A DNA stretch of 64,000 nt from a virus: the IMG/VR virus record IMGVR_UViG_3300008886_000001, positions 4,181 through 68,180 of that record. The stretch is one strand, 5' to 3'. The position numbers were made by a program, and so were the translations under genes. The first letter of the stretch is position 1; every line of letters starts with the position of its first letter. Below the pieces are notes generated by a model. That model saw nothing but the letters and a program-made list of their open reading frames with translations. It did no database searches and was not told the origin of the DNA. Of this stretch, positions 59,210 through 59,285 are shown piece by piece.

Positions 59210-59285
59210 TGGGCCTCTGAGCGGGAATCGAACCCGCAACCGGCCGACTTAGATTCGGCTGCTCTGCCAGTTGAGCTATCAGAGG
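59210..59285 (-). tRNA. Putative amber suppressor tRNA, anticodon CUA, encoded CCA
   Basis: 76-nt cloverleaf CCTCTGA/TCAGAGG, GCTC/GAGC, GCCGA-ATCTAAG-TCGGC, GCGGG-TTCGATT-CCCGC, C73, CCA. Confidence 0.85.

Follow-up and report, generated by a model that had tools for sequence, protein, structure and literature searches.

The stretch of viral DNA analysed here, to which we refer as the window, comprises 64,000 nt of a 72,227-base virus record and carries, toward its right end, a compact group of minus-strand genes in which a tRNA with the anticodon CUA (amber suppressor type) lies upstream of a gene for a protein resembling the peptidyl-tRNA hydrolases of the Pth2 family. Pfam matches elsewhere in the window identify the genes for a major capsid protein (19605-20705), the large terminase (26291-27772) and an AEP primase fused to an AAA_25 ATPase domain (50958-53510). 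ARAGORN predicts three tRNA genes in the window, all of them on the minus strand, at 59131-59208, 59210-59285 and 60758-60832. The last of these, also found with Rfam, specifies tRNA-Pro(CGG) and probably marks the attachment site in the host, where the prophage ends. It is followed along the minus strand by a tyrosine integrase gene (59347-60660; Pfam PF00589), the tRNA(CUA) gene with its encoded CCA, a 1-nt spacer, a second tRNA-like gene, a short hairpin, a terminator-like hairpin with a U tract, the sequence AAGGAG and the Pth2-like ORF.

Because GC content rises to 0.67-0.72 beyond the tRNA-Pro gene and a BatA/VWA gene starts there, the element looks like a prophage that has inserted at tRNA-Pro and carries the integrase at the right end. 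A search for an att repeat of this tRNA gene within the 72-kb record found none, and the left end of the prophage is not defined. A megablast comparison of 20 kb of the prophage with cultured phages returned a methylase fragment only, neither the integrase nor the Pth2-like protein, each used as a single query, had a match among viral contigs, and PADLOC assigned neither the Pth2-like protein nor seven of its neighbours to a defence family. The segment 58600-59400 is nearly unchanged in sequencing runs from 12 studies, the labels of which include plant and seawater metagenomes, and the host or the prophage is therefore widespread.

The tRNA with the anticodon CUA and its tRNA-like neighbour

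The gene at 59210-59285 (minus strand, 76 nt) is called by ARAGORN with cta at position 34; the "Pyl" label that accompanies the call is simply the name this program uses for CUA. The match to Rfam RF00005 extends over the full model (1-71) and reaches 57.9 bits, where the gathering score is 29 (E 6.8e-10). The acceptor stem (CCUCUGA/UCAGAGG) has 7 Watson-Crick pairs, the D arm (GCUC-AACUGGCA-GAGC) has an 8-nt D loop, the anticodon arm (GCCGA-AUCUAAG-UCGGC) reads A32-U33-C-U-A-A37-G38 in its loop, the variable loop (CGGUU) is 5 nt long, and the T arm (GCGGG-UUCGAUU-CCCGC) has a T loop that fits GTTCRANYC. All pairs in the stems of 7, 4, 5 and 5 bp are of the Watson-Crick type, the 7-nt anticodon loop has U33 and a purine at position 37, and the 3' end consists of the discriminator C73 and the encoded CCA. 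The oddities of the molecule are A32/G38, C73 and C1:G72. Every structural feature that the initial annotation had listed (paired arms, U33, CUA at 34-36, CCA, A32/G38 and C73) is present in the sequence, and the two programs bear out its call of a tRNA with this anticodon; the strand, which it had left unnamed, is the minus strand.

Contigs from two other studies, neither of which is likely to be the sample of origin, X5 (58936-59384) and X7 (59233-59400, a span that includes the anticodon at 59250-59252), show zero differences from the window; where a different anticodon in other reads had been considered, they have the same CUA, and they also carry the downstream TAG unchanged. An assembly error in the anticodon is unlikely because of this identity. 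With ARAGORN, Rfam, the sequence itself, the identical independent runs and the homologous CUA tRNAs described below in agreement, the tRNA at 59210-59285 is confirmed as real.

The best full-length matches of tRNA(CUA) are only ~70% identical and fall to phage tRNA-Lys(CUU), tRNA-Arg(UCU), tRNA-Asn and tRNA-Asp; in comparisons with phage tRNAs, the tRNAs of phage GAP32 and 41 tRNAs of an acidobacterial MAG, identity reaches at most ~73% and is spread over several isotypes, and E. coli tRNAs gave no useful match. The Lys-type body proposed in the initial annotation is not endorsed by matches so dispersed, and as far as these comparisons go no clear parent isotype appears to stand out. CUA tRNAs usually carry Gln or Lys in E. 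coli suppressor work. Here, as had been stated at the outset, the charged amino acid is not readable from the sequence: the comparisons single out no parent isotype, G3:U70 is absent, and position 3 of the Pth2-like protein is unconstrained. Two particular identities were set aside. A tRNA-Pyl requires a 6-bp anticodon stem, a 3-nt variable loop and a small D loop, whereas 5 bp, 5 nt and 8 nt were found; a His identity would agree with C73 but not with position -1, where C stands in place of G. The nearest sequence relative of the window tRNA (53/73) is a tRNA-Arg(UCU) that is situated near the Pth2-like gene of three lineages (L022:111-184; GAP32, 292115-292188; Serratia phage BF, 288101-288173). 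Its 27-43 pair is mismatched, and its loop is CUUCUAA, in which UCUA is one register off CUA. When viral contigs were scanned for the exact pattern of the anticodon arm of the window tRNA, no match was obtained.

The second tRNA-like gene (59131-59208, minus strand) was called by ARAGORN, scores 61.5 bits with Rfam and has a 9-nt anticodon loop, CUUAAACAA. The identical loop occurs in locus L020 (682-757), from a relative whose Pth2 is 60% identical, on a different and fully paired stem (CAACC/GGUUG against CCAUC/GAUGG). Since the same letters are kept on a different paired stem, the 9-nt loop would seem to be under selection rather than in decay. At three other loci (L002:7659-7732, L009:5697-5773 and L016:2780-2850) a GNRA tetraloop replaces the anticodon loop of the second tRNA, either as C-GCAA-G or as GCAA set straight on the stem, which yields a tRNA-shaped RNA without an anticodon; CCA is encoded in the L016 copy. 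A link between codon 2 of the Pth2-like gene and the odd loop was considered and dropped, as it was inconsistent across loci.

The Pth2-like gene and its leader

The gene for the Pth2-like protein (58649-59038, minus strand) has 129 codons if TAG is read as sense. It begins with the leader ATG-TTG-TAG (59030-59038), in which TAG is codon 3 (59032-59030) and is followed by the A of a second ATG (59029-59027); the ORF after TAG has 126 codons. A Shine-Dalgarno sequence, AAGGAG (59045-59050), stands 6 nt before the ATG at 59038, which is a good spacing, and 15 nt before the ATG at 59029. The initial annotation had held that no gene of this phage needs TAG as sense, and this is wrong for the gene next to the tRNA, in which a start led by a Shine-Dalgarno sequence is followed by TAG at codon 3.

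The tRNA(CUA) gene lies upstream on the same strand, 170 nt from the Pth2-like gene, or 247 nt by the count used in the survey of loci described below. Between the two is an intrinsic-terminator-like hairpin (59051-59096) with a 15-bp stem, TCTTTTTC, and a U tract, which ends just before the Shine-Dalgarno sequence, and because of this strong structure the co-transcription of the tRNAs with the Pth2-like gene is not assured. Transcription that enters the Pth2-like gene from upstream would need to read through the hairpin. The hairpin is absent in locus L001, and the additional, transcriptional gate that it would provide is peculiar to this phage. A single metatranscriptome contig covers 58667-58823 only and possibly represents DNA carry-over.

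Assignment of the protein to the Pth2 family is based on several methods. Pfam PF01981 matches with 30.1 bits (cut-off 23, E 5.9e-7), a profile of the phage family compared with the PDB has only Pth2 entries as top matches (2zv3, E 2.7e-6), and the AF2 model, with a pLDDT of 89.9, finds nothing but Pth2-family structures at Foldseek ranks 1-15, with TM values of 0.5-0.7. Judged from the predicted structure and these profiles, the Pth2 fold is established. The archaeal and eukaryotic Pth2 proteins (PF01981; 2zv3, 3erj, 1xty, 1wn2 and 1q7s) share with the phage protein the fold, the length class, an Asp in the active-site region (D81, nearly invariant in the phage family) and a conserved C-terminal K/R-L-L motif. 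They differ from it in sequence (16-26% identity), and the position of the catalytic Lys of archaeal Pth2 is His or Gln in the phage family. Because of this replacement the enzyme chemistry is unproven, and the protein is best described as a predicted hydrolase. Its N-terminal peptide past TAG is otherwise unconserved. Pth2 proteins have been noted earlier in jumbo phages, for which a role in rescue after tRNA cleavage was proposed, without a link to suppressor tRNAs or in-frame stops (PMC7824862).

Early stops and suppressor tRNAs at homologous loci

A protein search detected 49 relatives, for which DNA was drawn from metagenome assemblies, IMG/VR and cultured phages; the counts that follow rest on 22 independent loci. 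All 22 have an in-frame stop 3-9 codons past an ATG or GTG that is led by a Shine-Dalgarno sequence, most often at codon 3 (16 loci) and otherwise at codon 4 (2), codon 5 (3) or codon 9 (1), and in all of them the domain continues in the zero frame. The stop is TAG at 21 of the loci and TGA at one, L017. Directly after TAG comes A in 19 cases and G in 2, and such a purine fits selection for suppression. The codon directly after TAG is ATG at 7 of the 21 TAG loci (the window and six others) and ATN at 13; the other 8 have no ATN there.

At six loci (L006, L008, L009, L015 and those of Cronobacter phage GAP32 and Serratia phage BF) the conserved first beta-strand of the domain (x-Y-V-Y-V-x-x-R-x-D-L) comes after the stop but ahead of any usable start, and read-through is therefore needed there for the whole domain to be made. 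Gene callers predict truncated proteins or none at these six. The Pth2-like gene of GAP32 (GAP32_397; L027, NC_019401 about 290138) is annotated 28 codons too short, and that of Serratia phage BF (L028, NC_041917 about 286092) is unannotated; both faults are apparently due to TAG at codon 4. In Xanthomonas phage XacN1 (L026), ORF364 has an in-frame leader of the form AGAGGA-N8-ATG-AAG-TAG. Both this protein and its homologue in Stenotrophomonas phage RAS14 (L029), likewise preceded by a Shine-Dalgarno sequence and ATG-AAG-TAG, are longer chains with the Pth2 domain as their C-terminal part; the fusion partner is an N-terminal domain of ~170 residues with motifs that by eye are H...HD-like. At another locus (L066:1915-2991) the early TAG doubles as the stop of an in-frame upstream glycosyltransferase ORF, and an internal AAAGGAGG-ATG is situated four codons before it.

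A cognate suppressor tRNA accompanies 18 of the 22 loci. ARAGORN finds it on the same strand within the fetched locus in 13 of the 22, mostly 126-819 nt upstream of the start and in two cases ~0.4 kb downstream. The CUA tRNA of locus L003 (7514-7585), the loop of which is 8 nt long, CGCCUAAC, was missed by ARAGORN and found only by Infernal. GAP32 and Serratia phage BF have a tRNA(CUA) ~3 kb downstream, inside a tRNA region, and RAS14 has one tRNA(CUA). Two tRNA(CUA) genes are described for XacN1, no target of which was identified by its authors (PMC5852040). The contigs of the remaining four loci are short and break off at most a few hundred bases away, and one of these, L007, begins inside the apparent 3' half of a tRNA. 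The sole TGA locus, on a contig of 408 kb, has two tRNA(UCA) genes. With a coverage of 0.67 under code 11 and 0.81 with TGA as sense, measured over only 6.3 kb, this phage may be TGA-recoded overall; for that reason the pairing of TGA with UCA is counted only as consistent, and the case for covariation between stop and anticodon is weakened.

Alignment of 15 CUA tRNAs as cloverleaves reveals compensatory changes in 18 of the 21 stem pairs, with CUA-A37 kept throughout. The body of the window tRNA, down to the rare C1:G72 pair, recurs at L001, L008 and L025, while the bodies at L009, L015, L016 and in GAP32 are quite different. Going by these alignments, the conserved thing is the anticodon and not one tRNA lineage; the retention of CUA across such widely differing bodies fits selection for decoding, and a second role is possible. 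Two of the relatives (L008:5618-5690 and L016:2638-2708, with the loop CGCUAAA) have G33 in place of the near-universal U33, and it could be that G33 or an 8-nt loop lowers or changes decoding in these relatives. In the tRNA region of RAS14 (record OP752703, 285-311 kb) ARAGORN also calls a UUA anticodon, of the ochre type.

Stop codons of the phage and the role of the suppressor tRNA

The phage uses the standard code. Codon-usage gene calls under code 11 gave 71 complete genes, of which 57 end in TGA, 10 in TAA and 4 in TAG, and TAG is thus the rarest of the three stops; the initial annotation had listed six TAG stops among those that it checked. Reading TAG as sense joins no credible segments except the Pth2 leader and one pair of in-frame ORFs; an early TAG is absent from all other genes of the window, and the whole 72-kb record has a single TAG in frame inside a gene. 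Neither the many TAG-interrupted genes nor the low coding density under code 11 that mark code-15 phages were found, and the early statement that this is not a case of such recoding is upheld. Three of the four terminal TAG codons are followed by C, which is a poor context for suppression, and the extensions that read-through would add to the TAG-ending genes either are short or run, out of frame and with low GC3, into the gene that follows. The in-frame pair consists of a 119-codon ORF (37766-38125, plus strand, TAG at 38123-38125) and a serine recombinase/invertase gene (38129-38851; PHROG integrase/invertase); read-through in the context TAG-C would fuse the two into one ORF, 37766-38851. 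Hence, where the initial annotation had proposed a targeted suppressor acting on TAG-ending genes, the targeting is favoured by the present results but the targets are not: the four genes offer no credible read-through product, save for this one pair in its poor context, and the conserved target appears to be the in-frame TAG at the 5' end of the neighbouring gene.

The explanation that we prefer is that tRNA(CUA) is a dedicated suppressor and that synthesis of the Pth2-like protein depends on read-through of UAG. The position and conservation of the in-frame stop, together with the co-occurrence of cognate tRNAs, make this probable, and from them we infer that the tRNA is expressed, is charged by a host synthetase and does read UAG. 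A different account of the same leaders is that ATG-NNN-TAG is a two-codon mini-ORF, at which termination and reinitiation or the drop-off of peptidyl-tRNA (as with the lambda bar minigenes) would take place with no need for tRNA(CUA), the linkage to the tRNA reflecting only a shared cluster of genes for tRNA metabolism. In E. coli and lambda there is a functional link between two-codon minigenes and Pth, the peptide past TAG is otherwise unconserved at its N-terminus, and because ATG or ATN directly follows TAG at many loci (7 and 13 of 21), termination and reinitiation could indeed yield protein without suppression. We nevertheless regard the mini-ORF account as unlikely in view of the 8 of 21 loci without ATN and the several without a start before the conserved domain, and of the cognate suppressor tRNAs at 18 of the 22 loci, which are often on the same strand at less than 500 nt. 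The purine after the stop fits suppression as well, and the single TGA case has UCA tRNAs. Were tRNA(CUA) instead a general suppressor that extends TAG-ending proteins of phage or host, or disturbs translation in the host, the early TAG next door would be a secondary sensor or an accident. Four phage genes do end in TAG, one of them in frame with the recombinase gene downstream, and still the TAG-C contexts of three of these stops, their short or overlapping low-GC3 extensions and the fact that the early Pth2 TAG is the only feature conserved across lineages make this quite improbable; in XacN1, too, nothing was found behind 18 amber stops by its authors (PMC5852040).

A role outside decoding has also been envisaged, in which the tRNA would be a decoy or a resistant substitute for anticodon nucleases or other tRNA-targeting defences, or else a decaying pseudogene. 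Changes in phage tRNA loops have been proposed to evade nucleases, and A32/G38, C73, the neighbour with its 9-nt loop and the relatives with G33 or 8-nt loops might be viewed in this light. A decoy, however, needs neither a CUA anticodon nor a matching in-frame stop next door, a pseudogene would not be expected to retain a perfect cloverleaf scoring 57.9 bits, CUA-A37 is kept in 15 tRNAs of very different bodies with covarying stems, and there is no PADLOC match nearby. The nuclease decoy suggested in the initial annotation has accordingly gained no support, and we consider the whole class of non-decoding explanations highly improbable. Less credible again is the idea that TAG-to-sense (code 15) recoding has left a remnant or is at its first step here: one proposal sees the forerunners of recoding in the suppressor tRNAs that some standard-code phages carry (bioRxiv 10.1101/2021.08.26.457843), and TAG is the rarest stop here, but a single in-frame TAG in the 72-kb record, the same single-gene pattern in about 20 unrelated lineages and a genome of 60-67% GC, compared with the low-GC lineages in which recoding was described (same preprint), leave this explanation with hardly any likelihood.

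If tRNA(CUA) is a dedicated suppressor of the early stop, the ribosome would start at the AUG led by the Shine-Dalgarno sequence (59038), read UUG and meet UAG followed by A. Decoding of UAG by the charged tRNA would give the full Pth2-like protein, while success of RF1 at the same codon would release a dipeptide, after which the ribosome might restart at the adjacent AUG in the window. UAG followed by A, or by a purine, is a context that favours suppressors over RF1 in E. coli suppressor work. The output of the enzyme would then track the amount of active suppressor, and reinitiation at an ATG directly after TAG, in the window and the six loci like it, could supply a trickle that is independent of the suppressor. 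An early UAG would be the cheapest position for a gate, only a dipeptide being wasted. In minigene work release on very short peptidyl-tRNAs is slow, and the early position may for this reason also favour suppression. As to purpose, which is the least certain part of the scheme, the guess we favour is removal by the hydrolase of peptidyl- or acylated tRNAs left by stop read-through or by attack on tRNAs, with the early UAG serving as a gate that would match the dose of hydrolase to suppressor activity. More tentatively, and with distinctly modest expectations, one may ask whether suppressor tRNA, non-decoding tRNA-like RNA and Pth2-like hydrolase together form a self-contained mobile translational switch. 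In such a switch the hydrolase, made only during UAG read-through, would act on tRNA esters and the tRNA-like RNA would be a regulator or a substrate mimic, with possible uses in countering host immunity that targets tRNAs or in clearing the by-products of suppression.

We found no published description of an amber-gated Pth2 gene in a cassette with a suppressor tRNA; the papers on recoded phages, orphan suppressor tRNAs and the Pth2 of jumbo phages that full-text searches turned up contained no link between a suppressor tRNA and an early Pth2 stop. The purpose of suppressor tRNAs in standard-code phages had been unclear, and no target was named in the XacN1 paper (PMC5852040). The window and about 20 other lineages now point to one concrete and conserved target, a stop 3-9 codons into a Pth2-type gene, and the question becomes testable at the bench in the cultured phages GAP32, Serratia BF, XacN1 and RAS14. 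Annotations can be corrected as well, since GenBank records give the Pth2-like gene in shortened form or lack it. A natural stop-suppression gate on a single gene could inform models of the origin of recoding, and a compact orthogonal switch for synthetic biology is a possible offshoot.

Several known systems invite comparison. The phages that use code 15 (TAG to Gln; crAss-like, Lak and other phages; bioRxiv 10.1101/2021.08.26.457843, PMC9523058) also encode a tRNA(CUA) that reads UAG in a standard-code host, and their recoded codon can serve as a timing or regulatory gate, as is proposed here. They have tens to hundreds of genes with in-frame TAG, and their coding density collapses under code 11, whereas the present phage has one gene with one TAG, at a place that among the homologous loci is within the first 3-9 codons, and otherwise uses the standard code. 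XacN1 (PMC5852040) is likewise a standard-code jumbo phage, with two tRNA(CUA) genes and a Pth-type enzyme; its authors searched only behind annotated amber stops, and the ORF364 leader fits the pattern of the window. The prfB gene for RF2, with its in-frame UGA, is likewise a gene of the termination and recycling apparatus in which an early stop sets the gene's own expression. In prfB the stop is passed by a +1 frameshift and sensed by the gene's own product, while here no such frameshift was found, the frame being unchanged and the decoding assigned to a separate, co-encoded tRNA. The laboratory amber suppressors supE, supF and their relatives likewise combine CUA with A37 but, unlike the natural unit considered here, are mutated host tRNAs. 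Translation of two-codon ORFs fills the cell with dipeptidyl-tRNA, the removal of which falls to Pth, and the bar minigenes of lambda, together with pth, are an instance in which the phage minigenes are accidental; at the loci described here suppressor, mini-leader and hydrolase are passed on jointly.
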